Part shown: positions 28,020-63,851 of the stretch, piece after piece
Position numbering within the stretch: the first letter of the stretch is position 1
Layout of the letters: every line of letters begins with the position of its first letter
Source of the DNA: an uncultured Collinsella sp.
GTDB taxonomy: Bacteria > Actinomycetota > Coriobacteriia > Coriobacteriales > Coriobacteriaceae
DNA: 64,000 nucleotides
Assembly (NCBI GenBank): GCA_905208535.1
Contig: CAJLPI010000004.1
Coordinates: 65,159-129,158 of the forward strand
Direction of reading: 5' to 3'
Notes under the pieces: generated by a model
Databases searched by the model: none
What the model saw: only the letters and a program-made list of their open reading frames with translations
What the model was told of the DNA's origin: nothing
Program-made: the position numbers and the translations under genes

Positions 28020-28469
28020 ATGCTGAGCATTCACCTGGGGGATTACCCCGGTTCCATCTACGATACCGAAACCTATTTTAGGAACTCATACTTGGACTCA
28101 TGGTTCGAAGACCCTATGGCCGCACAGATTATTAAAAGCGTGGACGGATCAGAGCTCATCGGTCCCCACAACATCGTAAGCAAGCAGCTGGGCTCAATCA
28201 CCCCACTCGAACTGTCCGGCGGCGTTAAGACGCTGCTGCTGGTGCGCAATCTCCCAAACATGGTGTTCAATGCATCCACTTGCGGAGATAACTGCGCTCG
28301 CTGGCTGCTCAAAATTGGCAAAGAGCAGGATGTGCTGGTGACCCTTTACCACATCATGAAGTTCCCCTGGAAGAACTTTGAAATCCGCATTGAAAACGAT
28401 GACCGCATCGTCAGAAACATGCAGGAGTTTGTCGGCGCCACGAATGACTTTTTGGATGTTGATGAGTAA
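28020..28469 (+). CDS. module copy 1, small subunit: Walker-A-less ABC-half-like protein (DUF4869-like)
   Basis: I place the start at MLSIHLGDY; the ORF-track start 27930 lies in the aroQ terminator. LSGGVKTLLL (nt 28212..), VFNASTCGDNCA and VTLYH. Two paralogues lie in this window. The stop overlaps the next ATG. Confidence 0.8.
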   Translation: MLSIHLGDYPGSIYDTETYFRNSYLDSWFEDPMAAQIIKSVDGSELIGPHNIVSKQLGSITPLELSGGVKTLLLVRNLPNMVFNASTCGDNCARWLLKIGKEQDVLVTLYHIMKFPWKNFEIRIENDDRIVRNMQEFVGATNDFLDVDE

Positions 28470-29467
28470 TGAAGGGAACGCATACCGTTGTCGTAGAGCG
28501 TGCAAAGGTCAAATACACACTCACCTTTAAACGCAACATTTCCTTCATTCGCGGCAACAGCGGCACGGGCAAAACGACGCTTATCTCGATGATTCGCGAC
28601 TACAACGACCGAGGACCGGAAAGCGGCGTTACACTCAGCTGCGACGTGCCCTGCGAAACGCTTTCCGGCAGACGTTGGAAGCGCGAGCTTTCGATTATCG
28701 AGGACTCAATAATCTTTTTAGATGAGGGCAACGAATTTATCTACTCAAAAGACTTCGCAAAAGCCGTTAACGGGTCGTCCAACTATTTTGTTCTGATATC
28801 TCGTCGAGACGCCAGCGAGCTCCCCTACAGTGTCGACGAAATCCTAAAGCTGGTAAACACCACGAGTAAAACAATCAATGGTCGAAAGAGCGATAAACGC
28901 TTCTACTCGGTAACAAAACCGATATACAGCCACACAGCAAACATGCTTTACCAGGACCTAAATGTTGGATTCGAGGCACCCGACGCCGTAGTTGTTGAGG
29001 ATAGCAAATCTGGCTATCAATTCTACGACGCTCTTTGCAACCGACTCGGGATCCCCTGCTATACCGCCACCGGCGTTGCGAATCTAAAACGTACGATTCA
29101 CGAATGTCCCGAGCAAAACATCCTTGCTATTGGAGACGGAGCAGCATTTGGTCCCTACATCGAAAAGGTGCTCGGACAGCGCGTTTACAAGAACGTACGC
29201 TTGTTCCTCCCCGAATCATTCGAGTGGACACTCCTGCAATCTGGCCTCATTCCCAGTAACGATATCTTAAAAATCCTCGAGGATCCCTCAAGCTATATCG
29301 AAAGCCGCGACTACATGAGCTGGGAGCGGTTCTTCACCGACGTATTGATCAAGTACTCGGCAGACACTCGCTACGTCTACAGAAAGGCACGGCTCAACGA
29401 GCAGTACCTAAAGCCGCAGGCGATGGATGCAGTTGCAAGCGTCTTGCCCGAGTGTCTGAAGGCATAA
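28469..29467 (+). CDS. module copy 1, large subunit: minimal P-loop ATPase fused to Toprim/DUF4435-like domain
   Basis: 332 aa. Walker A GNSGTGKT (28553..28576), Walker B IIFLDEG (D85-E86 at 28721..28726), FVLISR. C-half VVVEDSKSGYQFY (E177), IGDGAAFG (D223), LPESFEW. Confidence 0.8.
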   Translation: MKGTHTVVVERAKVKYTLTFKRNISFIRGNSGTGKTTLISMIRDYNDRGPESGVTLSCDVPCETLSGRRWKRELSIIEDSIIFLDEGNEFIYSKDFAKAVNGSSNYFVLISRRDASELPYSVDEILKLVNTTSKTINGRKSDKRFYSVTKPIYSHTANMLYQDLNVGFEAPDAVVVEDSKSGYQFYDALCNRLGIPCYTATGVANLKRTIHECPEQNILAIGDGAAFGPYIEKVLGQRVYKNVRLFLPESFEWTLLQSGLIPSNDILKILEDPSSYIESRDYMSWERFFTDVLIKYSADTRYVYRKARLNEQYLKPQAMDAVASVLPECLKA

Positions 29468-29472
29468 TGGCA

Positions 29473-29509
29473 GTGGGGAGGACCAACTTGGTCCTCCCCA
29501 CTTTTAATT
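29473..29509. terminator. bidirectional terminator between convergent genes
   Basis: gtggggaggacc-aactt-ggtcctccccac perfect 12-bp stem followed by tttt. Confidence 0.6.
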
Positions 29510-30494
29510 ACGCCTTCCTGATCACGTATGCCAGGCTGATATCGCAGGCGCAACGCACGATTGATGCAAAGAGCCACGATGTTGGCAGCGTCATAAGTAG
29601 AGGCATGGTCTGCCAGGGGATAAACCAATCGACCGCGTGGATTGCAAAGATCGCCAGACTGGCTTGTCCGCAAAACACGAGTCCTCGCTCAAAGGACCCC
29701 AAAACCGGCACGTCTTTCAACTTCTCCAACGCCATCGAAACCCAACAGACGCAGTAGCTACCCGCAACAGCAGCAACCGTCGCAACAACAAATCCATCCA
29801 CGCGGCGGCTCGAAAGCTCAAGCCCACTCAGCGCGGCAAGGACGAGCCAAGCAACACCGGCTCCAATAAACAGCAGAGGCTTGCTCACGCTCGGCTCCAG
29901 CCCCCTTTGGCGCGCCGTATAACCAATCCACATCAGCAAGACGATATAGCAGCTCAAATCCAAATCGAGCGGCAGGTAAGCACCAAAATAGCGAGACACG
30001 CTCAAACCGCAAAAGGCAATCGCGGCACAGACAACGCCCTGCCAAACAACCCCAATCCTGCGGCGATCAAACAGCCGCACGAGCGCATTAAACAGCAGGC
30101 GCGACGTAAACAGCGCCGCCAAAAACCATGCCATGCCAACGGCGGTAACGCCAAACCCAGGCACATCAACGCCCGAGGCAAACACAAGCGTCTTAAGCCC
30201 CGCAACCAGCGTACCGCTTGTCAAAGGAGCGCCGCTCATTAAGAACGTCGGCACCTGCCACGCCAGTGCAAGAACCACATACGGCACCAGCAGGCGCGAC
30301 ACCGAACCACTCAGCAGCTCGCGCCACGGCTTCGGCCTAAACGTATACCCGGCAAGAATAAAGAACACCGGCATGTGAAACGAGAAGATCGTGTGCCGCA
30401 AGGGAGAGGGATTTGGAACGGTGTGCCCCACAATGACCAGAATAATTGCGATCCCCTTTGCAATATCAATCCAGTCGAGCCTTTTGCTTCCCAT
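29508..30494 (-). CDS. membrane acyltransferase (acyltransferase_3 family)
   Basis: Start taken at MGSKRLDWIDIAKGIAIILVIVGH (RBS gaaggg). Typical family N-terminus and about 10 TM segments. Confidence 0.8.
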   Translation of the reverse strand: MGSKRLDWIDIAKGIAIILVIVGHTVPNPSPLRHTIFSFHMPVFFILAGYTFRPKPWRELLSGSVSRLLVPYVVLALAWQVPTFLMSGAPLTSGTLVAGLKTLVFASGVDVPGFGVTAVGMAWFLAALFTSRLLFNALVRLFDRRRIGVVWQGVVCAAIAFCGLSVSRYFGAYLPLDLDLSCYIVLLMWIGYTARQRGLEPSVSKPLLFIGAGVAWLVLAALSGLELSSRRVDGFVVATVAAVAGSYCVCWVSMALEKLKDVPVLGSFERGLVFCGQASLAIFAIHAVDWFIPWQTMPLLMTLPTSWLFASIVRCACDISLAYVIRKA

Positions 30495-30525
30495 TGCGAA
30501 CCCTTCAAAACCGCAGCACACAAGA

Positions 30526-30569: not shown

Positions 30570-30646
30570 TGGTGCTCCATGGCGGATTCGAACCGTCGAC
30601 CTTGGGATTAGAAGTCCCCTGCTCTATCCAACTGAGCTAATGGAGC
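30570..30646 (-). tRNA. tRNA-Arg (anticodon UCU), CCA encoded
   Basis: Hand-folded: GCTCCAT acceptor, GCTC-AGTTGGATA-GAGC D-arm, anticodon loop CTTCTAA, T-arm GACGG-TTCGAAT-CCGCC. Confidence 0.85.
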
Positions 30647-32485: not shown

Positions 32486-33457
32486 GTGAATTCTGAATCC
32501 ATCGCCGTCATCATCCCTTGCTACAACGAAGCCCTCACGATCGGCAAAGTCATCGACGACTTTCACCGCGAGCTTCCGCAAGCGACGGTCTATGTCTATG
32601 ACAACAACTCGTCGGACGATACTTCACGCATCGCCACCGAGCACGGCGCCACGGTCCGCTTTGAGCCCCGTCAGGGAAAGGGCAACGTGTGCCGCCAGAT
32701 GTTTCGCGATATCGACGCCGATTGCTACCTGATGGTCGACGGCGACGACACCTATCCCGCCGAGGCTGCCAAAGCCCTCTGCGAGCCCATCCTTAACGGC
32801 ACGGCCGACATGACCGTAGGCGACCGCCTTTCCAACGGCACCTACGCCGAGGAGAACAAGCGTGCCTTCCACGGCTTTGGCAACAATCTGGTCCGCGCCA
32901 TGATCAAGTGGATCTATGGCTACAGCTTCGATGACGTCATGACCGGCTACCGCGCCATGAGCCGCCCGTTCGTCAAAACCTTCCCCGTGCTTTCCGAGGG
33001 CTTCCAGATCGAAACCGAGCTCTCGATCCACGCCGTCGACCACCGCTGGCGCATCAAAGATGTGCCCATCGAGTACCGCGACCGTCCGGAAGGCTCCGAG
33101 TCCAAGCTCAATACCGTGAGCGACGGCATTAAAGTCGTCGCGATGATCGGCACGCTGTTCAAGGACTACCGCCCGCTGAAGTTCTTCAGCCTCGTAGCGC
33201 TTCTGTTTGCGGTGATCGGCCTCGCCCTGAGCATGCCCATCGTTGTCGAGTATTTCCACACCGGCCTCGTTCCGCGCTTCCCCACCGCCATGCTCGCCGC
33301 GTCGTTTATGTTCCTGTGCGGTCTGAGCCTTGCAACCGGATTCGTCCTCGATTCCGTGGCAAAGGTCGAAAAAAAGCAGTGGGAGGTCAACGTGTACAGC
33401 AAATACGCCTACGACGACCAGCTCGGCCACCCCACTTCCAAGCCAAGCGAGAGGTAA
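32486..33457 (+). CDS. GT2 polyprenyl-phosphate glycosyltransferase (GtrB/DPM-synthase-like, C-terminal TMs)
   Basis: 323 aa. AVIIPCYNE and DGDDTYP (DxD), with two C-terminal TM helices. Confidence 0.85.
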   Translation: MNSESIAVIIPCYNEALTIGKVIDDFHRELPQATVYVYDNNSSDDTSRIATEHGATVRFEPRQGKGNVCRQMFRDIDADCYLMVDGDDTYPAEAAKALCEPILNGTADMTVGDRLSNGTYAEENKRAFHGFGNNLVRAMIKWIYGYSFDDVMTGYRAMSRPFVKTFPVLSEGFQIETELSIHAVDHRWRIKDVPIEYRDRPEGSESKLNTVSDGIKVVAMIGTLFKDYRPLKFFSLVALLFAVIGLALSMPIVVEYFHTGLVPRFPTAMLAASFMFLCGLSLATGFVLDSVAKVEKKQWEVNVYSKYAYDDQLGHPTSKPSER

Positions 33458-33463
33458 ACCACT

Positions 33464-34432
33464 ATGCCGCTCGTCTCCATCGTCGTGCCGTGCTACAACG
33501 AGCAGGAATCACTTCCGATCTTTCTCAAAGAGCTCGATGGCGTCGTTCGCATCATGACCCAGCAAGACCCCGGCATCTCCTTTGAGACAGTCCTCATCGA
33601 CGATGGCTCGGCAGACAAAACGCTCGCCGTCATGAAAGCAGAAGCCGCGGCGGCGCATCCATACGCCATCCGCTGGCACTCTTTCTCGCGCAACTTTGGC
33701 AAGGAGGCGGCACTACTCGCCGGACTCCAGCACGCAAAGGGCGACCATGTCGCCACCATGGATGCCGACATGCAGGACCCGCCCTCGCTCCTGCCGCAGA
33801 TGTACGAGATCTTACAAACCGAAGACTACGACAACGTCGCCACACGCAGGACCACCCGCAAAGGCGAGCCTCCCATCAGGTCGTTCTGTGCCCGTATGTT
33901 CTACAAGATCATTAACCGCATTTCCAAGGCCGACATCGTCGACGGAGCACGCGATTTTAGGCTCATGAAGCGACCTATGGTCAACGCCATCATCTCCATG
34001 GGCGAATATAACCGATTCTCCAAGGGCATTTACGGCTGGGTCGGCTTCAAGACCAAATGGCTCCCCTACGTAAACGTCAACCGCGTGGCCGGCGAGACCA
34101 AATGGAGCTTTTGGTCGCTGCTCCTCTATTCCATCGACGGCATCGTCGCGTTTTCCACGGCGCCGCTCTCCCTCGCCGCCCTCACGGGTATCGTTTTCTG
34201 TCTCATTGCCATCCTGGGATTCATCGTCATCCTGGTCAAGACGCTTGTTTGGGGTGACCCCGTCGGCGGATGGCCGTCCCTCGCCTGCCTCATAACGCTG
34301 TTTGGCGGCATGCAGCTTCTGTGCTTAGGAATCATCGGTGAATACTTGGCAAAAGCCTACTTGGAAACCAAACGACGTCCCATCTATATCATTCGAGAAT
34401 CCAACGAGGAATCTGATGACACGACCCAATAA
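33464..34432 (+). CDS. GT2 polyprenyl-phosphate glycosyltransferase (CsbB/GtrB-like)
   Basis: 322 aa. VSIVVPCYNE, DADMQDPP, RDFRLM, with two C-terminal TMs. Confidence 0.85.
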   Translation: MPLVSIVVPCYNEQESLPIFLKELDGVVRIMTQQDPGISFETVLIDDGSADKTLAVMKAEAAAAHPYAIRWHSFSRNFGKEAALLAGLQHAKGDHVATMDADMQDPPSLLPQMYEILQTEDYDNVATRRTTRKGEPPIRSFCARMFYKIINRISKADIVDGARDFRLMKRPMVNAIISMGEYNRFSKGIYGWVGFKTKWLPYVNVNRVAGETKWSFWSLLLYSIDGIVAFSTAPLSLAALTGIVFCLIAILGFIVILVKTLVWGDPVGGWPSLACLITLFGGMQLLCLGIIGEYLAKAYLETKRRPIYIIRESNEESDDTTQ

Positions 34433-36827
34433 CAGCACACTCAAGAATGTGGCGCTCTACGCCGCCTGCTTCGCGTTTTCCGTCGCACTTTTTATCGCAC
34501 TTGCAGCGGCGGGGCATGTCTACCCCTTTGGCGACAACTCGTTTCTCACCAACGATCTCAAATACCAATACATCGACTTCTTTGCGTGGTTTCGCCGCGT
34601 CCTTTTAGGCGAGACAAACCTTCGTTATTCCTTCTCGCAGGGACTCGGCATGAACACATGGGGGCTCTATAGCTACTACCTCGCCAGCCCCTTCAACCTG
34701 CTCTGTGTGCTGTTTCCCGCAGACAAGCTGACGCTCTTCGTATTTGCCATAACCGCGCTCAAACTGGGCTGCATCCACATCAGCAGCGCTTGGTATGTGC
34801 AAAAGCGCTTTAACCTGTCCAAGCCCGCAGCATTCCTGCTTTCCCTCTCATTTACGTTTTGCAGTTGGACCATAAGTAATTTGTGTAATCCGCTCTGGAT
34901 TGATTGCCTTATCCTGCTACCCATCTGCGCCTTCGGATGCTACGAGCTCATTCGCAAACAAAAAATGATACGCCTCGTTATTGCGATTGCTCTCAATGTC
35001 ATGTTCTGTTGGTATACGGCCTATATCAGCATCCTGTTCCTCAGCATCTTCGTACTGGTTGAGTTTGTCGATTACGTCGCTGCAGAAGGATATAGCTGGA
35101 TGCTCACGCTCGACCGAGTCCTACGATTTGCAGGGGCTATGCTGCTTGGGTTGCTCCTGTCCGCCTGGACCTTTTTGCCGACCATCCTTGCCATGGCAAA
35201 AGGCGGCCCCGTGCTGGCACTTGGACCTTTGCTTAAAACAGGCCTCAAATCGCTCATCAGGGGCTTCATCCCCGGCATGTGGGTGAATAACGGGAATACG
35301 CCGCAGTTCTATTGCGGCGTCATCATGATGTTACTTGCAATAAGCCTACTGTTTAACCGCAAGGTTTCGACCAGGATACGCATCGCAACGTTCGTCGTCA
35401 CAGCCGTCCTGATCGCTAGCTCCGTTTTGAGCCCGCTCGAGTACATCTGGTGCGGCATGCGCGTTCCCAACGGGTTCTATTCGCGCACAGCCTTTTTGCT
35501 GGGCTTCTTTACGATGTGGGCCGCAGGCTATTCGTTGCAGGTGTTCGAGGGCCAGCCCAAATTTCGTCATGCCTATCGACCCGCCGTCGTATTACCAATC
35601 CTGACAATCACCGCAATTGATTTGTTTATCAACGCCCATGTGATGTGGAACCAACTGTACGCAGGCTATTCCGAAGATGCCAACTGCACCTATGTGACTA
35701 CCGCAACCAACACGATCACAACCATTCAAGCCCAGGATCCTGCGTCATTCTACCGTATCGATCGAACGACCACGCGCGCCGATAGCGCTGCCCTCAACGA
35801 GGGCTTAGCGCTTGGGTACAACCAGCTGTCGTCCTACTCATCCGCAAATAACCCGCAGGCCATCGCACTGCTCAACTCCCTTGGATACAGCAGCATTGGC
35901 GAATTCTCAACCCGTTATGCGGAGCCCATTCTCGCCGTCGATGCCCTACTGGGAGTCAAGTATGCCATTCCCGAGAACGCGCCTGCGGGATACGTTTCGG
36001 CCAAGACGAATCAGGCCGACTCTACAAGCGCGGTGTACGAGAACCCCTATGCGCTCAGCATTGGCGTCGCAGCCTCAAGCGATATCCAAAACAGCACGCT
36101 GAAGAGCGAGAACCCCTTCGAAAAGCAGAACGACCTCTACAGCAAAATCCTAGGCCGCGAGGTCGAGCTCTATACCAAGATCGAGGCCACGAGCACGGAG
36201 AATAGCGATAGCTTAAAGCAATGGAGCGTTACTCTTCCGGCAAGCTCCATCGGGTATCTCTACATCAACAAAGATACGACTGCCGGCAGTTATTGGCCCG
36301 TCACCCTTACCATCGACCAGCGAACGATCGAAAACGAGGCCTGGAGATTCGACAATAATATCCGCCAGATTGCGGATGCATCGGACGCCCCGAGCCAGCA
36401 TACGGTGTCAATCGGAGTCGCAGAGGGCTATACAGACATGCCCCAAGACAATGAGCCGGTCTTTTACGCCCTCAATCTGGACGTTTTCGAGCAGATTATT
36501 AACTCGCTTAAGACGAGCGAATTTGTTCCGACGGTTTTTGAGGACGGAAGGATCGAAGGCGAGTATACCGCCAAGGATGACGGCAACCTGCTGCTGAGCG
36601 TTCCGTACGATGAGGGCTGGAACGTAACGGTAAACGGAACCGCCGCAGAACTAACGCCCGCCGCCGATAAGGGTTTGTCGTCCCTGAACATACAGAAAGG
36701 CGCGAATAGGGTCGTGATGACCTACAAGACTCCGGGTGCCCTTGCGGGACTTGCAGTGAGTCTGGCGACCGCAGCCGCCCTTATTGCAGCGGGACTATAC
36801 GCCAGGCATAAGAAAAGCCGCCGTTAA
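34416..36827 (+). CDS. YfhO-family GT-C membrane glycosyltransferase
   Basis: I place the start at MTRPNNSTLKN, overlapping the preceding stop. About 13 TM segments plus a large C-terminal extracytoplasmic domain and a final TM. The CsbB-YfhO pairing is classical. Confidence 0.8.
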   Translation: MTRPNNSTLKNVALYAACFAFSVALFIALAAAGHVYPFGDNSFLTNDLKYQYIDFFAWFRRVLLGETNLRYSFSQGLGMNTWGLYSYYLASPFNLLCVLFPADKLTLFVFAITALKLGCIHISSAWYVQKRFNLSKPAAFLLSLSFTFCSWTISNLCNPLWIDCLILLPICAFGCYELIRKQKMIRLVIAIALNVMFCWYTAYISILFLSIFVLVEFVDYVAAEGYSWMLTLDRVLRFAGAMLLGLLLSAWTFLPTILAMAKGGPVLALGPLLKTGLKSLIRGFIPGMWVNNGNTPQFYCGVIMMLLAISLLFNRKVSTRIRIATFVVTAVLIASSVLSPLEYIWCGMRVPNGFYSRTAFLLGFFTMWAAGYSLQVFEGQPKFRHAYRPAVVLPILTITAIDLFINAHVMWNQLYAGYSEDANCTYVTTATNTITTIQAQDPASFYRIDRTTTRADSAALNEGLALGYNQLSSYSSANNPQAIALLNSLGYSSIGEFSTRYAEPILAVDALLGVKYAIPENAPAGYVSAKTNQADSTSAVYENPYALSIGVAASSDIQNSTLKSENPFEKQNDLYSKILGREVELYTKIEATSTENSDSLKQWSVTLPASSIGYLYINKDTTAGSYWPVTLTIDQRTIENEAWRFDNNIRQIADASDAPSQHTVSIGVAEGYTDMPQDNEPVFYALNLDVFEQIINSLKTSEFVPTVFEDGRIEGEYTAKDDGNLLLSVPYDEGWNVTVNGTAAELTPAADKGLSSLNIQKGANRVVMTYKTPGALAGLAVSLATAAALIAAGLYARHKKSRR

Positions 36828-38319: not shown

Positions 38320-38439
38320 ATGGGAAAAGCTCCTATCGAAGAGGTTCAGGTTGCGGGCGCCCGCGCGGGGACGCAGGATCATCCCCATGCCCTGCGGCCC
38401 CGCGCGGGCGCCCCGCGGTGCGGTTCGCCGGGGTTCTGC

Positions 38440-39525
<1,086 letters not shown>

Positions 39526-39534
39526 TCAACAAAA

Positions 39535-41001: not shown

Positions 41002-41031
41002 GAAAAGGGCCACCAGATAAACGGTGGCCCC
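41002..41031 (-). terminator. intrinsic terminator directly after rfbA
   Basis: gggccacc/ggtggccc stem with an 8-nt loop, followed by UUUU on the minus strand. It lies between rfbA and module copy 2. Confidence 0.55.
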
Positions 41032-41051
41032 TAAAAGAAAACAAGCCGGCG

Positions 41052-41951: not shown

Positions 41952-42053
41952 ATATTCCGTCCTCTACAATCGAAAATAGTTATAAATCGAGCGGTTAGTA
42001 AGAGTTTGATATTCTATTAAGTTAATCCTTCTCAATATTAACGAAAGAAGCAA

Positions 42054-51336: not shown

Positions 51337-51401
51337 ATAAACCGATCTCTAGTTTTTCTCATTATTATAGCGAGAGATATACAAATGGTTAAATAGACAC
51401 A

Positions 51402-52026: not shown

Positions 52027-52135
52027 ACGGCATCGAGAGCCCCCGCAACAAACCTCGTCCTAGATTTCAAAGCTAGCAATCTTCCGAGTGTGAACTGCAT
52101 GGTTACGCCATGTCTCTCTAAGCGTAGGTGCACAA

Positions 52136-53080: not shown

Positions 53081-53116
53081 CTAAAACCTCCAACACCGCT
53101 GCGGGAGCAAACGCTA

Positions 53117-54214: not shown

Positions 54215-54247
54215 CCATCTTGTTCTTCCAATACGGAAAGGGACTAA

Positions 54248-55264: not shown

Positions 55265-55410
55265 TCGCCCTGTTGTCATCGCTCATTTTTCCTGGCACCG
55301 AGTAGTAAAACCAACCGACTTAGCCTTCGATAATCAAATGTCAGGCAAGCCGGTTGGTCATAAAAGTAATGAAAGTACATTAGGCTATTCTGCTTAATAA
55401 GCGTCGCAGA

Positions 55411-56961
55411 TTATCGCTTGATAAATGCAGATATGCTCGTCTTTTCGGATTCGTTTAGCCCAAACATCAAAACCAAGAAGAAATAGATAAAGAAATAAAT
55501 TATTGCTGACACCAAAACCACCACAAGGCCAGATAAAAGGCTTTTAATTAGGTTATAGAGCAGCAGCAAAGCCCCCGTACCGACAATAACCAAGACGGAA
55601 AGTTTGGCAATTTCAAGCCAAAATTTCTTTATGTTCAACCCAAGCTTTTCAGAGTAATACCAATTCATACAGAAACCGTTACCTATAACCATAGCGATGG
55701 CTGTTGAAACTGCTGCGCCCACTATGCCCATAAGCTTGAGCAATATAATCGTCACGACCACGTTGACAAGCGCAATCGCAAGATACATATACCCCCTATA
55801 CAGGTAAACATTCGCAACCTGCATTATGGTAAGTCCCAGGTTCTGAATTAAGTCAATGGTAAATGGAACCATTACGATCAAGGCGATATAGAAAGCGTCT
55901 ATATAGTCCTTACCAGCCCAAATAATGATGAAATCTTTCCCCAGAACAATAAATAAACTAAGAACAAATCCGCAGACGATAAAGGAAATGCGACCGACTT
56001 TAATGAAGAGATCCGAAATTTCAGACATATCCTTATTCTGGCAATACAGTTCTGAAACTCGAGGAAGAAAAACTGAAGAGGCTGCCGTACCGATTGTCAT
56101 ATAAATCGTGTAGATTTGAGATCCAACAGAATATACCGCAACGGCGGCAGCACCAAAATAATAGCCGACAATTAATTGATCGGTTTTCCAGAAAATCTGG
56201 TCAGCAATCGTCACCAATACAATCGCGCCGCTAAAAAATAGCAATCCTTTAGCCAGTTTCATGTCCCAGCCATGATATCTGAAACTAATATGCAGATTAT
56301 ATTTAGCAAACAAACGCTGGCTCACCGCGCACAACACATTTGTAACAAGCACAACTAAACATACGGCTAATGCATTCTTAAAAATTGTCGTAAGTCCATA
56401 CACAATGAAAGGCTGAGCTATTAGGGCGGCCAATTGCGAGCCCTTCAAAAAAACGAACCTTTCATTAGCAGTTATCGCCGCAACGCTAATAGTGTTGTTC
56501 ATGATAACAATTGTGTTGATCCCTAATACAACAAGCATTGCGGAACACTCATCAAGCTGTGAGTTTGTAAAACTGGCTGAATATACAAACCGAACAACCA
56601 CGGCGAGAACGCAACTTATTAGCATCACGAACACAGATAGGACCCAGTACAGACGCCTAGCTATTGCGAGAGTATTCTCCATTAAGTCATTTTTGCCCTC
56701 TGCCATATACTTGCAATAAAAACGCCCAACACCGGCAGACAAAATCCCATTAATGGAAACTATATAAGACATGATAGAACCTATCAATTGATAGAGTCCG
56801 TATTCGTCTTGTCCAATGTTTTGCAACAACATCGGAACATATACAAAGCCGACTAAAGCCTGAGCCAGTATATAACCATATGTAATTATTATGCCAGTAA
56901 GTCTTCTGCTTGCGCTACTTATCAGAATCACCGTTTCACAATTAGTTGCTTCAAATACCAT
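55411..56961 (-). CDS. Wzx-like oligosaccharide flippase (MOP superfamily)
   Basis: 516 aa, about 14 TMs, typical polysaccharide-biosynthesis-protein profile. The start could be an internal Met. Confidence 0.8.
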   Translation of the reverse strand: MVFEATNCETVILISSASRRLTGIIITYGYILAQALVGFVYVPMLLQNIGQDEYGLYQLIGSIMSYIVSINGILSAGVGRFYCKYMAEGKNDLMENTLAIARRLYWVLSVFVMLISCVLAVVVRFVYSASFTNSQLDECSAMLVVLGINTIVIMNNTISVAAITANERFVFLKGSQLAALIAQPFIVYGLTTIFKNALAVCLVVLVTNVLCAVSQRLFAKYNLHISFRYHGWDMKLAKGLLFFSGAIVLVTIADQIFWKTDQLIVGYYFGAAAVAVYSVGSQIYTIYMTIGTAASSVFLPRVSELYCQNKDMSEISDLFIKVGRISFIVCGFVLSLFIVLGKDFIIIWAGKDYIDAFYIALIVMVPFTIDLIQNLGLTIMQVANVYLYRGYMYLAIALVNVVVTIILLKLMGIVGAAVSTAIAMVIGNGFCMNWYYSEKLGLNIKKFWLEIAKLSVLVIVGTGALLLLYNLIKSLLSGLVVVLVSAIIYFFIYFFLVLMFGLNESEKTSISAFIKR

Positions 56962-56976
56962 TCAGAAATTAAAGCA

Positions 56977-59406
56977 CTATTTAATCAGAACAACCGATTG
57001 CCGAACCTCTCCTTTGTTCGCATTGTTAAAGCAGGGTCCGATTAAATTCCCAGGCAGAATTTGATGCCACATTTCATTGTCATGCGGATTATCTCCCCAG
57101 AAGAACCCAATATGACAGTCGATTGATCCGTCAGTCTTAAAGAAGATAATATCTCCCTTTTGAGCATAACCACTATTTAGCATATCTTGGACAGTACGGA
57201 ACTCATACATTTTGCATCCCAAATCTCGAGCATAGCCATACCATCTCCAAGCGTTAATATAGCCGCCACCGCCTGGCCCCCCAGCCCAAGGAGAGTGATT
57301 ATTATTCTGCGCAATACGATTGACATCGCCACCAACCGCAGCATAAGCATGAGCCACGAAGCCAGTGCAATTCATGCCAGTATAGCCATCCCATCTCGGG
57401 GCACCTTTTGGGTAAAGGCAACTATCATAGGAGAAGCCACCGGAATATCTCGTTCCTAAATAATAGCCATCAAATTGATGCGACGTAAGCCAAGTGACGA
57501 GTCCAATACGACTAACCCCCAAAACCGTTGAGCTGCCAAATGGACTGTAGTAAATCTGAGTCGACTTCGACTGGAGAGTGCCATCAGGAAGCAAGACATC
57601 GCAGTAAAGATCGTAATAACCATCTTGCAATCCAAGTGCAGAGGGATTGAAATAAGCGTCATTCACACTGGAAAATTCTTTTAGAACACCCCATTTACTC
57701 CAGTCGGACTTGGCCCAAACAAATTTAAACTGAAATTGCCCAGATTTTTCAGCTGCAAGCGTTCCCAAATCAGCTCGAACTCCCCAAGAATTATTGCCAT
57801 CAGTCGAAATTGCAGTAATCCTCGAGAAATCCCAACAGCTAATGATTGTTCTTTTTGTTTGGACAACTCCATCTGACCCCGAAACGTCACAGATCAATTC
57901 ATAGTCTCCGGCGTCTTTTGGATCCCATTGCAAGTGTGAACTTGTGCCCTGTTGAGCAACGCCCCAGTCAGCCCAATTATTCTTATTCCAGACGAACTTA
58001 TACTGTAAGTAATTAGTATCACCCGAGCATCTGGCATCGATCTCAGTGCTTTCATTAGGCCTGACAAGCGTTGCAGAAGAACTCAAGGACTCGTAATTCC
58101 ACTTCTCGGAGCCAATCGAGCATTCAGTCTTCGAGGTCATCGTCTGATCGTTGGCCTCATCAATAACATCAACAAAAACGGTGACAGCGCCAGATTTATC
58201 GACTCTCCAGTCAATTGAGGATTTACCTCTGCCGGAGTCAATCACACCCCATTCAGCCCAGTTGTTCCGCATCCAAACATATTTGTATGAAATCTGATTA
58301 TTCTTTCGGATGGTAATCCGAGGTGTAATTGAAAGCGTATCCCCTACGCACAAATTGGATGAATCAGATTTCAAATCTATTGAAGTGAAGTTAGATAGAT
58401 TTCTCTCCACCCTGACGGGGAACCTCCAGGTCCTCACGTTGCCGGCCGAATCGACGGCGTCGACCAAGATGTTGACGTCGCCGGCGACCTCCGGCACCCA
58501 ATCGCAGGAGGCCTCGGGCCCGAGCTGGCGGATGGTGCCCCACCTGGACCAGCCGCCCTGCTCCCAGACGAACTTATAGCGGACCGAGCCCGAGTTGCCG
58601 GACGCGGTCAGGCCGAGCGAGCAGCGGTCGCCCAGGAGAGGAGACCCTCCATCGGACGCCTTTGCCGAGAGGCCGTCGACAGAGTAGTCCTCTGAGATGC
58701 GAACGGGGAGTCTTGACGTCGACGTGAGCCCGCCGACCGTGACGTCGGCATAGAGAGTATAGGAGCCGGAAGACGGGGGCGTCCAGGTACAGGCGGCGGA
58801 CTCAGATGCTGCCTGGATGACGCCCCACTTGGACCATGAGCCCCGTTCCCAAAGGAATTTAATCTTTGCGCCGGGAGCCGCCGCGGCGGAGATATTGACC
58901 TTCATTCCGCCGCTCCACTCGAGCGTATCCCCGCCGCTCACGGAAAGGCGACAGGCATCCACCCTGACGGGGAACCTCCAGGTCCTCACGTTGCCGGCCG
59001 AATCGACGGCGTCGACCAAGATGTTGACGTCGCCGGCGACCTCCGGCACCCAATCGCAGGAGGCCTCGGGCCCGAGCTGGCGGATGGTGCCCCACCTGGA
59101 CCAGCCGCCCTGCTCCCAGACGAACTTATAGCGGACCGAGCCCGAGTTGCCGGACGCGGTCAGGCCGAGCGAGCAGCGGTCGCCCAGGAGAGGAGACCCT
59201 CCATCGGACGCCTTTGCCGAGAGGCCGTCGACAGAGTAGTCCTCTGAAACCGGCGAAGTTGCACTTAAATCATCGGCCCGTGTTGAATCTTCAATCTGTG
59301 ATGGAGACAGGCCCGCTTCACTCAAACCAAAGCAAGGAGTTACGGCCAAACAGAAATAAAAGAAGAAAAAAGCGACACGGACAGCCTTACTTCTAAAGAA
59401 ATGCAT
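56977..59406 (-). CDS. secreted cell-wall hydrolase: six Ig-like (Y-K-F-V-W...W-G) repeats + C-terminal NlpC/P60- or CHAP-like cysteine peptidase
   Basis: I place the start at MHFFRSKAV (RBS ggggagg) with a signal peptide. Repeats show the pattern (Y/F)K(F/Y)(V/L)W-x(3-4)-W-x-x-WG. The C-terminus has NCTGFVAHAY (Cys) and DCHIGFFWG (His). Confidence 0.75.
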   Translation of the reverse strand: MHFFRSKAVRVAFFFFYFCLAVTPCFGLSEAGLSPSQIEDSTRADDLSATSPVSEDYSVDGLSAKASDGGSPLLGDRCSLGLTASGNSGSVRYKFVWEQGGWSRWGTIRQLGPEASCDWVPEVAGDVNILVDAVDSAGNVRTWRFPVRVDACRLSVSGGDTLEWSGGMKVNISAAAAPGAKIKFLWERGSWSKWGVIQAASESAACTWTPPSSGSYTLYADVTVGGLTSTSRLPVRISEDYSVDGLSAKASDGGSPLLGDRCSLGLTASGNSGSVRYKFVWEQGGWSRWGTIRQLGPEASCDWVPEVAGDVNILVDAVDSAGNVRTWRFPVRVERNLSNFTSIDLKSDSSNLCVGDTLSITPRITIRKNNQISYKYVWMRNNWAEWGVIDSGRGKSSIDWRVDKSGAVTVFVDVIDEANDQTMTSKTECSIGSEKWNYESLSSSATLVRPNESTEIDARCSGDTNYLQYKFVWNKNNWADWGVAQQGTSSHLQWDPKDAGDYELICDVSGSDGVVQTKRTIISCWDFSRITAISTDGNNSWGVRADLGTLAAEKSGQFQFKFVWAKSDWSKWGVLKEFSSVNDAYFNPSALGLQDGYYDLYCDVLLPDGTLQSKSTQIYYSPFGSSTVLGVSRIGLVTWLTSHQFDGYYLGTRYSGGFSYDSCLYPKGAPRWDGYTGMNCTGFVAHAYAAVGGDVNRIAQNNNHSPWAGGPGGGGYINAWRWYGYARDLGCKMYEFRTVQDMLNSGYAQKGDIIFFKTDGSIDCHIGFFWGDNPHDNEMWHQILPGNLIGPCFNNANKGEVRQSVVLIK
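58406..58695. repeat. 290-bp intragenic repeat, copy A (identical to 58958..59247)
   Basis: The ORF track gives the same alternate-frame peptide STLTGNLQVLTLPAES...PPCSQTNL at both places (ends 58579 and 59131, offset 552). DNA identity checked by eye. Confidence 0.9.
58958..59247. repeat. 290-bp intragenic repeat, copy B
   Basis: As above. It encodes a second identical SEDYSVDGLSAKASDGG...TWRFPVRV domain. Confidence 0.9.
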
Positions 59407-59533
59407 ATAGAACCTCCCCGATAGTTCACTCCAACATAATATTGCTAGCAAGTAACAATTTAAGGCCAAGATTTACCATACAAGTAAGGTCGACTACAAC
59501 CAGCGCAGTCGACCTAGAGAATTCATATTGATA

Positions 59534-62194
59534 TTAGCCAATTAAAGAAATAATGCGCGCAATATTCTGACCATACGTGTCACCCGGAACAGCCCAGCGG
59601 CCATTTAAATCTTCCAAATATGGCGCAACTCCGAGAAAACCCTTAGACTGAAGGACTTCATATCGAGGATCCACACAAGTGTTATTCAACGCCGCACCAG
59701 TAGCATATCCTTTAAGATGCTGGACTTGGGCAAGCAAGCCCTGATATACATCGTCAAATCTAGCGCCTCCCGATTGTTGATTGACGGCGCCCAGTCCGGC
59801 GAAATTGCACTGATTCGGCTTTACGGAACCTCCAAATTGCAACCATCCAGTCTCAAGCATAGCCTGAGCAAAAACAACTTCCGGACGAACCCCTTCAGAA
59901 ACAGCGGCTTCGACAATTAATGAACAAAAATCACGAATAGTAGGTGCTCCCTTTGAAACAAATTCGTCTGAGGGATATGTATGTCCTGTTGATTCATATA
60001 AGTTCACCATAGCATCAACTGAAGTCTGCAGACTTCCCATAATTGGAGTACCCTCCACCGTGACCTTGCGGGTCAGGTGCCTCTCGGCGGAGCCGTCGAT
60101 CACGTCGAGGTAGACGGTGTACTCGCCCGGCTCGGTCGGGGTCCACTCGCAGGAGGAGGAAGCGGAGGGCTGCTGGGCGACGCCCCACTTGGCCCAGCCG
60201 CCCTTCTCCCAGACGAACTTGTACTTGAGGCCGGAGGCGTCGCCGGACACCTTGGCCTGCAGCTTGACCGGCTTGCCGCAGCGGGCGTCGCCCGAGACTT
60301 CGAGCGACTCGACGGAGTAGCGCTCGCCGACCGTGACCTTGCGGGTCAGGTGCCTCTCGGCGGAGCCGTCGATCACGTCGAGGTAGACGGTGTACTCGCC
60401 CGGCTCGGTCGGGGTCCACTCGCAGGAGGAGGAAGCGGAGGGCTGCTGGGCGACGCCCCACTTGGCCCAGCCGCCCTTCTCCCAGACGAACTTGTACTTG
60501 AGGCCGGAGGCGTCGCCGGACACCTTGGCCTGCAGCTTGACCGGCTTGCCGCAGCGGGCGTCGCCCGAGACTTCGAGCGACTCAAGAGACCAATTAACAA
60601 CTTTGTATTTAGAAGTGCTAGTCACATACCCATTGGAGTCAATGACATCAGCATAGATCTCATATTCACCAGCCTGGGGCAGGGTCCAAGAAATCGACGG
60701 CGAAGTTAAGTCTTGACCGATTACACCCCAATTGGAATCACTCCAATCAGACCCAGCCCTATGCCAAACAAACTTATATCTAAGGCCATCAGTCTTGCCG
60801 CTAACATTTACACCGATTTTTACCGTTGACCCCGCATGCCCCAGTTCTTCCGAGAAGGAAATTCCATTGACGGAGTAGGGATGCGGGAACTGCGCGATGA
60901 TTGCGGCAGCGTCAGCCTCGCCAAGACGGCGGCAACCATCGTCCGAGAAATAGTTGACCACATCACCGTAATTCGAGATAAAGCCATGTTCGATAAGAAT
61001 ACCTGGAATTCCCTGCTCGCGAGCGCAGCGGATAACGGCGAACTCGTCGCCTACCTCCATTTGAAATACGCCGCGGCATGTTAGTCCCATAGCAGCAAGG
61101 TTGTTCATGACCTTGTTGGCAAGCTCAACAGAGACCTGCGTGTAGTCGGTGCCATTTGCGGTAGGAGCATAAACTTCTGCGCCGTGAGCTCCAGAAGACC
61201 CAGAGTTGATATGAAAGCTAACAAAGGCCTGCGCGCCCTGATCAATGCAGCGCTGTACGCGATAAAGATAATCATTGCTGGGATAGTAGCCAGACTGCTC
61301 GCGCGCAAGAACGATCTTAAAGCCGTAAGCTTCAAGTTTATTTTTGCAGGCTGTCATGATCTTCCAGGTAAGGTCGGCTTCACTCTTGCCATTTCCCTGC
61401 GCGCCGGAATCAACTCCGCCATGACCGGCATCAAGTGCAATCACCCCAACATTGCGCGCGGAGCGCTCAGCGTAGGTAGATATGCCATCAGGCGAATCAG
61501 CGCATTCCAATGCCTGTTGAATCGACTGGGCCTCAACGGCATTACCATCGCCGTCCGCATAGTAAACAGAAGTGCCCTCGGAGCTCACGGAGCTATCAAC
61601 AACCGTAAACGAATAATTCCTGTCAGAGAGATCCACTACATGTTCAGTGCCATCACCCTGCAAAACGTAGGTTATCGAAGTCAAAAAATAAGTATTGGAT
61701 TTCAACGTCGAGCCAAATACAAAAGCAGCCGAATTACCAGCTAATTCAGATGCAACCGTGGTTCCCTGTACTCCATTGGCACTTACATAGTTAAGCATTG
61801 CGGAAGCAAGGGTGTCGCCGTCATCGGGAGTAGCAAAGGCGACAACTTGATCAGTCCCGCCGGGAAGACTCGGGTAGGCAAGATATACATATTGGAAAGA
61901 GGAATCGACCGGTTCAGCCTGCTGATGGTTCTCAGATACATCAACGCCAAAATCCTCATCAGCCAATTCGTCAACGTTCGTTGCCGGCGATGAATCCTCA
62001 GCAGCGTCGACATCGACAGAACCCGCATCACGCGAGGCCACGCCATCATCGTCTGCAGTCGCAACGTCCACGGCAGCGTCCGCAGACGGGACGTTGCTCA
62101 CAGCGTAGACAGCAGTCACAGGACCTATCAAGGGTGAAATGGCCAAAAGACCAGCAAGAGAAAAAGCTGTTGAGGCACGCAATGCCTTTTTCAT
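59534..62194 (-). CDS. secreted bifunctional autolysin: N-acetylmuramoyl-L-alanine amidase + three Ig-like repeats + C-terminal N-acetylglucosaminidase
   Basis: 886 aa with a signal peptide. Amidase_3 (ALDAGHGGVDSGAQGNG...FVSFHINSG...GAEVY). Repeats YKFVW..W..WGV. C-terminal glucosaminidase (FAQAMLETGWLQFGG...NFAGLGA). Confidence 0.85.
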   Translation of the reverse strand: MKKALRASTAFSLAGLLAISPLIGPVTAVYAVSNVPSADAAVDVATADDDGVASRDAGSVDVDAAEDSSPATNVDELADEDFGVDVSENHQQAEPVDSSFQYVYLAYPSLPGGTDQVVAFATPDDGDTLASAMLNYVSANGVQGTTVASELAGNSAAFVFGSTLKSNTYFLTSITYVLQGDGTEHVVDLSDRNYSFTVVDSSVSSEGTSVYYADGDGNAVEAQSIQQALECADSPDGISTYAERSARNVGVIALDAGHGGVDSGAQGNGKSEADLTWKIMTACKNKLEAYGFKIVLAREQSGYYPSNDYLYRVQRCIDQGAQAFVSFHINSGSSGAHGAEVYAPTANGTDYTQVSVELANKVMNNLAAMGLTCRGVFQMEVGDEFAVIRCAREQGIPGILIEHGFISNYGDVVNYFSDDGCRRLGEADAAAIIAQFPHPYSVNGISFSEELGHAGSTVKIGVNVSGKTDGLRYKFVWHRAGSDWSDSNWGVIGQDLTSPSISWTLPQAGEYEIYADVIDSNGYVTSTSKYKVVNWSLESLEVSGDARCGKPVKLQAKVSGDASGLKYKFVWEKGGWAKWGVAQQPSASSSCEWTPTEPGEYTVYLDVIDGSAERHLTRKVTVGERYSVESLEVSGDARCGKPVKLQAKVSGDASGLKYKFVWEKGGWAKWGVAQQPSASSSCEWTPTEPGEYTVYLDVIDGSAERHLTRKVTVEGTPIMGSLQTSVDAMVNLYESTGHTYPSDEFVSKGAPTIRDFCSLIVEAAVSEGVRPEVVFAQAMLETGWLQFGGSVKPNQCNFAGLGAVNQQSGGARFDDVYQGLLAQVQHLKGYATGAALNNTCVDPRYEVLQSKGFLGVAPYLEDLNGRWAVPGDTYGQNIARIISLIG
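60057..60583. repeat. tandem duplication, period 273 bp (two identical ~254-bp cores)
   Basis: The ORF track shows the identical alternate-frame peptide MYSPGSVGVHSQEEEAEG... at 60117 and 60390. The encoded domain ESLEVSGDARCGKPV...HLTRKVTV occurs twice verbatim. Confidence 0.9.
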
Positions 62195-63292
62195 ATCGAA
62201 TCCCCCGTCACAAATAATGTTACTAAGAGAAGATTATCTTACAATCCCCTCTGCATCGGAAGTCCAGTTATTCGAAGCGCGGGAATTGTTATAAAGGCAG
62301 ACAGAAACCTGCTCTTATAAAAAGCAGGTTACATTCTCAGCAAACTTTTGTTTTTTCGTCCTTCCATGGACACAGTGTTAGCTCTAGTTTTTGAAGCAAT
62401 TGGCAGCGCCCCAAACAGCGCAAGTGCAAGTGACACGAAAATCCACTGAAACACGCAATTCGTTTAAGCACGTGGCGGACGACGAAAGCATGTACACAGC
62501 CGCGAAATACAGCAAAATGCCCCAATGTTTCGCTTGCATCAGAGGCGTCTGGGGCTTCATCGACAGTGAAACCTGGCTAACGCATTCAAGAAAAGCAGAG
62601 CGTGATCTTCATGAATCAAACACCAGTAAGCAACGCTCGCACGCGTCTTTGAATCTTCTAATGAGCAGAAGAGAGGGATCTAGGAGAGACCTAATAGTTC
62701 TTGGAATCTGGGAATCATCGAACTCACCATCTTTAAACAAGAGAGAATCATATAGCTTCTTATCGTACCGTCTCGAAAAGATATGAGTGACCAGATGCAC
62801 ATCGTGGGCCTTTGAAAAACAATCTTCGTCCCTTAAAGATTCAGCAATATAACAACCGTCCCAATCAAAAAAGCCGAGATAACCCCGGCTGATAATCAAA
62901 GAGGCGGTTTTCTGCTGGCTGTCAGCCGCGGCATCCTCACGGAAACCTAGTTGTCGCCGGAATTATAGTCCCCGGCGCGGACTCACCTTATCTCCCCGGT
63001 GCGGGCTCGATATCCTCTCGGATATCTAATCGTCTTGGACTTTTTACCTGCCCAAGCACACTACAGCTTTTACGTGCCGCCACACGAAGCTTAGCTCGTG
63101 GACTATTTTCTAAAATATAGGCCTTCAAAGCAACTTGGGTTCAAGCACGGACAAACAAAACAGGCACTGAATACAAGACTTGTTTATCAATAGTTATCAA
63201 TCACATGCGTTACCAGCAAATATCGTAAGTCTCATACGCTGCGATACAATCAATCTTACCAAATGCTAAACCAGTAAGTCGAAGGGGCCAGC

Positions 63293-63742
63293 GTGCCAAC
63301 AATTCACTATGGTGATATGGAAAACGTTATCTATAATACGTCGGTTTACTTCGATAACGTCTATTCGCCCGAATGGTTTCAAGATGCTTTTGCGCAGAGA
63401 ATTATTAAATCCATTAATAAGGGCGGCGTGGTTGGACCCGGCGCAATAAACACCAAGATCTTAGGCATCATCCCTCCTGAAAGGCTGTCGGGAGGCACCA
63501 AGACGCTGCTGCTCATGCACTTCATGCCTCAGAACATATACAACGCCACAACCTGTGGCGACAATTGCGCTTACTGGATTCTGAGAATCGCCGCACAGCA
63601 TGATCTGACAATCAACCTCTACCATCTGATGGATTCTGGAAACGGCAAGTTCACGGCAACCGTTGCAAACACGGGTGATGTCGTTCACACGATGTTCGAC
63701 CTTGTCCCTATAGCCGCAAAATGCCTAAGGGAGAACTCCTGA
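63293..63742 (+). CDS. module copy 3, small subunit (orphan): Walker-A-less ABC-half-like protein
   Basis: 149 aa, GTG start after gaagggg. IHYGDMENVIYNTSVYFDNVY, LSGGTKTLLL, IYNATTCGDNCAYW and INLYHLM. Confidence 0.75.
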   Translation: MPTIHYGDMENVIYNTSVYFDNVYSPEWFQDAFAQRIIKSINKGGVVGPGAINTKILGIIPPERLSGGTKTLLLMHFMPQNIYNATTCGDNCAYWILRIAAQHDLTINLYHLMDSGNGKFTATVANTGDVVHTMFDLVPIAAKCLRENS

Positions 63743-63743
63743 C

Positions 63744-63851
63744 GCACGTTTTCGATATGATAAGAGCCGCTTGAACGAGGAGTACTTGAACCCCACCGCT
63801 CTTGCAGCTCTTGAGGATACTTTGCCGGAACTTGGCATTACTTCGCACTAA
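63744..63851 (+). pseudogene. remnant (last ~35 codons) of the module large subunit
   Basis: My translation ARFRYDKSRLNEEYLNPTALAALEDTLPELGITSH* aligns with the C-termini of copy 1 (YVYRKARLNEQYLKPQAMDAVASVLPECL) and copy 2 (FRYDK). It begins 1 nt after the small-gene stop. Confidence 0.7.

Follow-up and report, generated by a model that had tools for sequence, protein, structure and literature searches.

A two-gene DUF4869-ATPase module in three diverged copies around a Collinsella cell-wall polysaccharide locus

Three copies of the module in the window

Our study describes a two-gene module that occurs three times in a 64,000-nucleotide (nt) stretch of DNA from an uncultured Collinsella sp. 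of the aerofaciens group (assembly GCA_905208535.1, contig CAJLPI010000004.1, positions 65,159 to 129,158 of the forward strand), which we refer to throughout as the window. In its complete form, the module begins with a small gene for a DUF4869 protein (Pfam PF16163), followed by a larger gene for a protein with an N-terminal P-loop and a C-terminal domain bearing an acidic pocket. This DUF4869-ATPase module is a genuinely uncharacterised family; no publication on DUF4869 was found in the literature searched, and the family of the large protein, which is of constant length and counts 3,367 matches in a 90%-identity collection (2,025 clusters at 50% identity), has neither a name nor a Pfam domain. 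Read from left to right, the window contains an aro operon ending in aroQ, copy 1 of the module, an acyltransferase gene, tRNA-Arg(TCT), an ABC (ATP-binding cassette) exporter, two GT2 genes with YfhO, the genes rmlCD (rmlC and rmlD fused into one protein of 507 amino acids (aa), within 36865-41951) and rmlB, copy 2, rmlA, a low-GC island of glycosyltransferase, flippase and autolysin genes (GC, guanine-plus-cytosine content), and copy 3. The features are listed in Table 1.

Table 1. Coordinates of the module genes and of associated features in the window.
Feature	Position	Strand	Remarks
Copy 1, whole cassette (1.58 kb)	27890..29470	+	From the aroQ stop codon to the terminator hairpin; breakpoints in 35 Collinsella loci
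Copy 1, small gene, DUF4869 protein, 149 aa	28020..28469	+	PF16163, E 1.7e-47, 160.9 bits
Copy 1, large gene, 332 aa, P-loop lobe and C-terminal domain with acidic pocket	28469..29467	+	39% identity to the copy 2 large protein
Perfect 15+15 nt hairpin (bidirectional terminator)	29472..29502		Bounds the copy 1 insertion; also in empty sites
tRNA-Arg(TCT) with its own terminator	30570..30646	-	Other edge of the hot spot
Copy 2, large gene, 324 aa	39535..40509	-	9 nt downstream of the copy 2 small gene
Copy 2, small gene, DUF4869 protein, 145-147 aa	40519..40962	-	PF16163, E 1.7e-57, 193.3 bits
Terminator-like hairpin between rmlA and copy 2	41005..41032	-	Consensus scan only
Breakpoint from Collinsella-wide conservation to the hypervariable low-GC glycan island	41952..42053		5' end of rmlA, ~1 kb from copy 2
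Copy 3, small gene, DUF4869 protein, 149 aa, intact	63293..63742	+	PF16163, E 4.1e-48, 162.9 bits
Copy 3, large-gene remnant, final ~35 codons (ARFRYDKSRLNEEYLNPTALAALEDTLPELGITSH, then stop)	63744..63851	+	blastp-short against large-protein C-termini

All three small proteins exceed the Pfam gathering cut-off of PF16163, which is 28.9 bits. The original prediction had placed three homologous modules in the window, and their positions and homology stand; copy 3, however, is incomplete, since its large gene has been deleted except for the remnant in Table 1, which is 48-52% identical to the C-termini of copy-1-type large proteins (E 4e-6 to ~5e-6). The same arrangement of an orphan small gene was also identified in 5 metagenome contigs. 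In copy 1, the stop codon of the small gene and the start codon of the large gene overlap by 1 nt, and an upstream ATG at 27930 is improbable as the true start of the small gene, the family alignment beginning at MLxxxxGD. The large protein of copy 1 has 1203 homologues, and a sequence identical to that of the large protein of copy 2 is found in human-gut metagenomes (161 kb contigs).

The small proteins share 51%, 43% and 48% of their residues in pairwise comparison, in keeping with an earlier estimate by eye of under half. On the evidence of their sequences, the three copies are old, independent acquisitions, as had been anticipated, and not the product of a recent duplication, because nucleotide similarity between them is limited to motif stretches of 54-100 nt at 70-76% identity and because each copy is nearer to homologues elsewhere than to its paralogues in the same genome. 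The copy 2 small protein is 74-79% identical to homologues in other taxa, the copy 1 large protein 72-78%, and the copy 3 small protein 56-58%.

The prediction that each copy sits at a boundary of base composition holds in part: the copies do lie in or next to variable DNA, but copy 2 is an AT-rich islet (GC 0.46-0.49) within a uniformly GC-rich rml block (rmlA 0.66; rmlB and rmlCD 0.64-0.70), and the boundary of both composition and variability lies at 41952-42050. Homology is lost at 41952-41993 in all 35 full-length loci, except for three that share the island and one (L037) in which it stops at 42053. It is important to note that the GC of the module is lower than that of its flanks in 41 of 44 contexts and tracks the GC of the host (r = 0.81). 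Such a difference from the flanks characterises the family as a whole and is no evidence for a recent arrival at this locus.

Behaviour of the module in Collinsella and in other bacteria

Copy 1 lies in a variable segment between aroQ and the tRNA gene (27889-30512), which also contains the acyltransferase gene. Comparison with two empty sites (L038 and L070) shows that copy 1 cleanly replaces a 26-nt spacer, and the copy is present in ~10 and absent in ~14 informative Collinsella genomes. We identified at least six alleles of this gap: empty (9 genomes); the acyltransferase gene or its remnant alone (2 genomes); the acyltransferase gene with an IS3 element (IS, insertion sequence; 2 genomes, L066 and L083); the module with an intact or partly deleted acyltransferase gene (~10 genomes), in one case (L061) with an additional HTH_3/HTH_31 (helix-turn-helix, HTH) gene; and the small gene only (1 genome, L015). 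The presence of copy 1 is uncoupled from the acyltransferase gene, from the YfhO/GT2 block and from the island. No att-like repeat of tRNA-Arg was found, which leaves an integrase-type island unsupported, and neither terminal inverted repeats nor target-site duplications were found at the ends of the window copies. The module thus carries none of the marks of a mobile element that we looked for: a transposase or integrase of its own, terminal repeats, a target-site duplication or an att site.

Copy 2 behaves differently from copy 1. It was identified at 97-99% amino-acid identity in 80 species-representative genomes, which are the best 80 genome matches kept, are all from Collinsella and serve here for comparison within the genus. 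In all 80 matching loci the copy occupies the identical site between rmlA and rmlB, and in Enorma the module likewise lies immediately upstream of rmlB. Its small gene is intact in 80/80 loci and its large gene in 69/80; a frameshifting deletion of 367 nt, which removes the acidic-pocket domain, is common to 10/80 genomes. The copy is under strong purifying selection: its small gene has a ratio of nonsynonymous to synonymous substitution rates (dN/dS) of 0.06 and its large gene one of 0.12, compared with 0.13-0.16 for rmlA and rmlB, and the nucleotide identity to the window is 95.8-97.4% for the module versus 92.6-94.8% for the rml genes. A vertical origin with a composition matching the flanks had been named as an outcome that would speak against the original prediction; copy 2 is indeed inherited in place, but its composition differs from that of its flanks. 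The consensus scan found no terminator between module 2 and rmlB, so the module is probably co-transcribed with rmlB-rmlCD.

The low-GC island (41952-58500, GC 0.40-0.47) is common to only 3 of 35 Collinsella genomes, the remainder having unrelated gene sets in its place, and the GT2 and YfhO block (33457-36809) shows clean presence/absence (16/35 genomes) with fixed breakpoints at 33456 and 36810. These data map the conserved and the hypervariable parts of the Collinsella cell-wall polysaccharide locus, and they contradict the proposal that the modules hitch-hike with exchangeable glycan cassettes and lend no support to a direct part in their exchange: copy 2 is fixed while the island beside it is rarely shared, copy 1 varies independently, no recombinase features are seen, and the island starts at the 5' end of rmlA. 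Recombination breakpoints beside the modules had also been expected. Across 43 genomes, the identities of segments are poorly correlated everywhere, and the lowest correlation (r = -0.56) is seen for rmlCD and rmlB, a pair that is not separated by a module; the rml region is a mosaic with no special breakpoint at the module.

To place the family in a wider setting, metagenomes and IMG/VR were scanned by the invariant motif FNASTCGDNCA, and the 120 loci obtained from metagenomes reduced to 25 distinct contexts. Members of the family occur in gut Firmicutes and Coriobacteriia and are numerous in Collinsella, Lachnospiraceae and Ruminococcaceae of the human gut. Glycan-type neighbours were found in 2-3 of the 25 contexts, all of them Collinsella copy 1 or copy 2, and an enrichment of glycan genes across the family was not found, since 22/25 metagenome contexts lack them; the association with glycan loci on which the earlier proposals depended is confined to Collinsella in this sample. 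The absence of such an association elsewhere had been named as an outcome that would refute the original prediction. Recurrence at glycan loci was seen within Coriobacteriia only, namely at the rml operon of Collinsella and Enorma and in a high-GC gut bacterium of this class (flank GC 0.64-0.66), where the module lies exactly at the junction of a conserved flank with a variable one carrying GT2-DUF2304, choline and autolysin genes, next to what is left of a second large gene. In this high-GC, Coriobacteriia-like species, we also observed a gene for a 362 aa protein with AAA_16/AAA_22 and MarR_2 domains directly upstream of the module (L003:6312-7400), which is strain-variable and absent in L110-L113. 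Elsewhere, the module lies between azlCD and the glycerate kinase gene (glxK) in Agathobacter rectalis and in the recombinase- and IS21-rich part of the Ruminococcus albus plasmid pRUMAL02; in several Firmicute contexts only one of the two flanks is conserved, the other varying from locus to locus.

Genes of defence type recur among the neighbours of the module. In two loci (L120, at 6747-12013, and L123) a pair of AbiLi (AAA_21) and RloB genes lies directly upstream of the module and a WYL regulator gene downstream of it, and in three others (L130, L157 and L237) a member of the AbiLi-type AAA_21 ATPase family is found nearby. Further neighbours of this type are HEC-02A/B, PDC-S05, a type IV restriction enzyme, RtcR-CARF, QatC, PDC-S23 and DarT1-NADAR, and a reverse transcriptase is also present among them. 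In one virome scaffold (L117), a single degraded module lies 2.5 kb from a type I-E cas operon.

Two candidate observations were rejected. The first was a pair of modules bracketing CRISPR-Cas in this scaffold, together with a second module in L118: the open reading frame (ORF) pairs concerned are of the same size as the module genes, but are not homologues. The second was carriage by phages, as the GenBank records named 'Bacteriophage sp.' are unverified virome scaffolds, one of which is plainly a chromosomal rapZ-whiA locus.

Predicted architecture of the two proteins and comparison with known systems

The AlphaFold2 (AF2) model of the large protein has a mean predicted local distance difference test score (pLDDT) of 92 and a predicted template modelling score (pTM) of 0.90. 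In the copy 2 protein, the conserved features are Walker A (G30-T38, with K36), D86-E87, E167-D168, D213-G214 and P240-E-S-F-E-W245. Residues 1-140 comprise three antiparallel strands, the P-loop (GxSxTGKTT) and a strand with D86-E87, only ~45 residues separating the P-loop from this strand. For residues 36-147, hhalign gives an alignment with an ABC nucleotide-binding domain, in its P-loop lobe (probability 96%, E 2.6e-9), and Foldseek relates the N-terminal domain to the ABC domain of MutS (probability 0.96) and to a viral ABC protein (0.99). Sequence searches of the PDB with single proteins, a full-length profile and a C-domain profile returned P-loop matches only, and no signs of a recombinase were found in the module proteins.

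The C-terminal domain (residues ~160-250) is modelled as a four-strand parallel alpha/beta unit. The invariant residues E167, D213-G-A-A-F-G and P-E-S-x-E-W, with the nearly invariant D168, are located at the ends of its strands, in a geometry that is the layout of the Mg-binding pocket in Toprim and receiver domains; the motif is D-G-A instead of the DxD of Toprim. From its shape only, we infer that this domain may be Toprim-like.

The DUF4869 protein (model pLDDT 94) appears to resemble the signature/H-loop half of an ABC ATPase. Its top 50 fold matches in the PDB are nearly all heads of ABC, SMC, PtuA or AriA proteins, and its invariant elements succeed one another as one would expect in the latter half of an ABC domain: LSGG (67-70) and a helix, the strand IFN (84-86) of IFNAS, GDN, and a strand ending in H113. 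In a local hhalign run at low mact, the signature motif is paired with LSGG, the Walker B strand with FNAS and the H-loop with NLYH; other hhalign runs, against an ABC protein, P2 Old and the large protein, gave nothing significant. The protein has no P-loop or Walker A, and the acidic residues of Walker B are replaced by N86-A87. According to these models, the module would be unusual in separating the P-loop lobe from the signature/H-loop lobe, which seem to be parts of two different polypeptides.

The two genes are always adjacent, with -1 to +16 nt between the stop codon of the small gene and the start codon of the large one, and the divergence of the two proteins is strongly correlated (r = 0.98, 139 unique pairs). 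No fused DUF4869-ATPase protein was found among the best 150 of the 2,025 representatives. The genes decay unequally. The large gene is lost or broken with the small gene intact in copy 3, in L015 and in the 10/80 copy 2 loci with the 367-nt deletion; of the metagenome modules that do not lie at a contig edge, 67 are intact, in 12 the large gene is broken or missing beside an intact small gene, in 8 both genes are broken, and in no case is the damage limited to the small gene. The opposite case is a small gene split by IS21 on pRUMAL02 (353 kb), and the overall asymmetry is 15:1 (small kept to large kept) in a biased sample. That it is preferentially the small gene which survives suggests toxin-antitoxin-like genetics. 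Tandem modules were identified in L146 and L151, and two small genes followed by one large gene in L154. In L003-L012, an ORF of 138 aa directly downstream of an intact module (e.g., L003:9116-9649) corresponds to the C-terminal domain of a second large gene; by its sequence, we take it to be the remnant of a tandem module.

Pairings of an ABC ATPase with a Toprim, NERD or PIN domain are a validated defence theme, and systems combining an ABC ATPase with an effector dominate those recently described, including OLD, Gabija, PARIS, Septu, Lamassu and HEC-01 to -04 (PMC10568477; bioRxiv 10.1101/2024.01.29.577857). Among the closest in layout are class 1 OLD proteins (P2 Old, Thermus scotoductus OLD) and HEC-04, which, like the module, have an ABC-type P-loop ATPase followed by an acidic alpha/beta domain in one polypeptide and are accessory genes in defence-island contexts. 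The strand-strand-P-loop arrangement at the N-terminus of the large protein aligns to P2 Old, as it does to ABC nucleotide-binding domains, and the Walker A lysine of an ABC-type N-terminal ATPase is present. The OLD family is defined by a dimerisation domain inserted into its ABC ATPase (PMC10568477); in the model of the large protein no such insertion was found, the ATPase region being only ~140 aa long and without a signature motif. Unlike in OLD and HEC-04, moreover, the signature/H-loop lobe seems to be on the separate upstream protein, DUF4869; the C-terminal motif is D-G-A and not DxD, without a match to a Toprim model or to P2 Old; and the large protein has ~324 aa as opposed to ~525-590 aa.

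PARIS (AriA, an ABC ATPase, with AriB, a DUF4435 Toprim nuclease; class 4 OLD) is similar in being a two-gene system of ATPase and effector, whose components form a complex, and an AriA chain (8v46_B) is among the fold matches of DUF4869. It differs in that the module fuses the P-loop to the putative effector and has a small partner without a P-loop; the PADLOC model of AriA matches only ~33 residues around the P-loop (E 0.0086-0.052), and AriB/DUF4435 gave no match. AbiL and RloA-RloB (an AAA_21 ATPase with the Toprim-like RloB) share the two-gene organization of an ATPase and a small acidic alpha/beta protein, but the window proteins match neither the AbiLi nor the RloB model, and both the gene order and the distribution of domains differ. 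The module is also reminiscent of type II toxin-antitoxin systems in the translational coupling of a small first gene to a larger second one, in its patchy, multi-copy distribution, its orphan small genes and the preferential loss of the large gene; in contrast to these systems, DUF4869 lacks the fold of a DNA-binding antitoxin and the module contains no known toxin domain.

A possible defence cassette and its alternatives

We propose that the module is an accessory, horizontally spreading cassette of the defence or abortive-infection type, combining an ABC ATPase with an effector in the manner of OLD, PARIS and HEC-04, which resides in variable hot spots and shows toxin-antitoxin-like genetics, and we give this proposal an even chance of being correct. 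It is favored because defence-type neighbours recur and because the module is accessory, copy 1 being a precise insertion or deletion. According to this proposal, DUF4869 would be the signature/H-loop half of an ABC-type ATPase head without a P-loop, and the large protein the P-loop lobe fused to a small alpha/beta domain whose acidic pocket, of Toprim or receiver type, probably binds Mg2+. The two proteins would assemble, with DUF4869 controlling the binding or hydrolysis of ATP by the large subunit; upon a trigger such as phage infection, the acidic-pocket domain would act as a nuclease or phosphoesterase effector, and the small gene would be the indispensable partner in toxin-antitoxin-like genetics. 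What the data show directly is the family membership, the coupling of the genes, the fold class of the P-loop lobe, the behaviour across genomes and the statistics of the neighbourhoods; the complex, the nuclease activity and the role in defence are inferred. The clustering of three copies would reflect that the glycan locus and the adjacent aroQ-tRNA gap form a local hot spot for accessory DNA, most likely with no functional link to glycan synthesis or to cassette exchange. Three paralogues at one glycan locus could easily be taken to imply such a link, and caution is needed here: the genus-wide comparison and the unbiased contexts indicate a mere hot spot for accessory DNA. The defence or addiction character suggested by the original prediction is accordingly plausible; a role in stabilising the glycan cassettes is possible, but we saw no sign of it.

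Several of our results weigh against this proposal. Regarding the effector, neither Pfam Toprim nor OLD-like_TOPRIM nor DUF4435 matched the C-terminal domain, in the window copies or in ten distant members; PDB sequence profiles did not match it either; hhalign of the large protein or of this domain against P2 Old aligned only the P-loop; and its best structural matches are receiver domains, over only ~80 residues. Fold matches of the large protein to OLD-type viral 'ATP-dependent endonucleases' are weak (probability 0.23-0.44). The fold matches of DUF4869 are weak too (Foldseek E 0.02-0.2, TM 0.36-0.40), and its local hhalign register, although as expected, has a probability of ~10%. PADLOC models gave matches at the level of the P-loop only and recognised no known defence component in either protein, and NCBIfam and PHROGs returned nothing useful. 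With respect to distribution, the module is nearly absent from viruses (only 5 viral contigs in IMG/VR), a Firmicute clade has it between rapZ and whiA, in a housekeeping operon near murB, and the metagenome sample of gene decay was conditioned on the small-gene motif, which biases its asymmetry. Finally, copy 2 resembles a core gene in its fixed site in two genera, its low dN/dS (0.06-0.12) and a conservation greater than that of rmlA and rmlB. This fixed and constrained copy is the main misfit to a purely selfish or defensive picture, and it keeps alive, at low probability, a domesticated role.

The strongest of the alternatives, which we nevertheless judge rather improbable, is that the module is a toxin-antitoxin addiction module, in which the large protein would be the toxin and DUF4869 the antitoxin, the flanking DNA, be it the glycan locus or another island, would be stabilised against deletion, whether or not this effect is under selection, and orphan DUF4869 genes would provide anti-addiction immunity. 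This would explain why the pair begins with the small gene, in tight coupling with the large one, why the small gene is retained while the large gene is repeatedly lost (copy 3, L015, the 10/80 copy 2 alleles and, in the metagenome sample drawn by the small-gene motif, 12 cases to 0), and why orphan small genes and the double-small arrangement of L154 exist. The frequent location at junctions of conserved and variable DNA and the presence of several diverged paralogues per genome, which do not look as if they would cross-react, are also in line with addiction. However, neither protein shows similarity to the toxin and antitoxin families known so far, a DNA-binding fold is lacking in DUF4869, and stabilisation is not evident, since the island beside copy 2 is freely replaced (only 3/35 share it) and copy 1 is cleanly lost. 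It should also be considered that this alternative overlaps heavily with the defence reading, as many systems of abortive infection have a toxin-antitoxin-like character.

A housekeeping or regulatory role in the envelope glycan synthesis of Coriobacteriia, for example as an ATP-dependent step or checkpoint co-expressed with rmlB-rmlCD, seems very unlikely to us; the position of copy 2 in the rml operon would then be functional. The conserved site upstream of rmlB in Collinsella (80/80) and Enorma, the lack of a terminator before rmlB and purifying selection at least as strong as that on the rml genes all agree with it, as do the GT2/DUF2304 and autolysin genes adjoining other Coriobacteriia copies and the rapZ-whiA site near murB in Firmicutes. 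Against it stand the 22/25 unbiased contexts that lack glycan genes, the frameshifting deletion of the large gene in 10/80 Collinsella genomes, the GC at third codon positions (GC3) of the copy 2 module (0.54, versus 0.96-0.98 in the rml genes), the dispensability of copies 1 and 3, and a fold that gives no hint of sugar chemistry.

The least probable alternative is a selfish homing-type nuclease, which would insert itself between genes or promote cassette exchange through breaks at the edges of the locus: the precise intergenic insertion of copy 1 without repeats or transposase, the insertions within otherwise conserved operons (rmlA/rmlB, rapZ/whiA, azlCD/glxK), the pairing of a conserved with a variable flank in many contexts and the slightly lower divergence of the module than of its flanks within Collinsella would fit it, but there is no recombinase or known homing-endonuclease fold, the island breakpoint is at the 5' end of rmlA and not at the module, pairs of genes without an intervening module lose linkage to the same degree, copy 1 occupies a general hot spot, next to a tRNA gene, that has also taken up IS3 and an HTH gene, and no DNA homology exists between the copies that could mediate exchange.

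Returning to the defence-type cassette, a bolder version of it is possible, although we regard it as unlikely in its full form: that the module represents an unrecognised and widespread immune or addiction system of the gut built on a split ABC ATPase, in which the P-loop lobe would be fused to a novel nuclease domain with an acidic pocket, DUF4869 would complete or block a single ATP site as a 'two-key' switch, orphan DUF4869 genes would confer immunity against incoming cognate modules, and one Coriobacteriaceae copy would have become locked into the rhamnose operon. If the proposed cassette is real, a gut family of ~2,000 clusters that has gone unnoticed would be a new ABC-ATPase system, of the defence or toxin-antitoxin type, whose nucleotide-binding domain is split in an unusual way, and DUF4869 would have its first functional hypothesis.

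The right-hand part of the window offers some additional observations. No transposase or inverted repeats accompany the modules inside the window, as was originally stated, but the gene of an IS256/Mutator-family transposase begins ~270 nt past copy 3, just outside the window (~64016 onward; L100:10724-11296). Several metagenome contigs break at this IS256 edge, and the end of the window is probably an assembly break at the repeat; the IS256 element is separate from the module. Between the autolysin gene and copy 3 (62200-63290, ~1.1 kb), the longest ORF has ~130 aa, and this segment may be gene debris. GC-rich patches occur within the low-GC island at 51000-52500 (0.53) and 58000-59500 (0.57-0.60). 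Lastly, the amidase/glucosaminidase autolysin of 886 aa encoded at 59534-62194 on the minus strand contains an exact tandem duplication of a ~87 aa module (SLEVSGDARCGK...RKVTV, twice), a sequence pattern that suggests a very recent expansion of an internal repeat.

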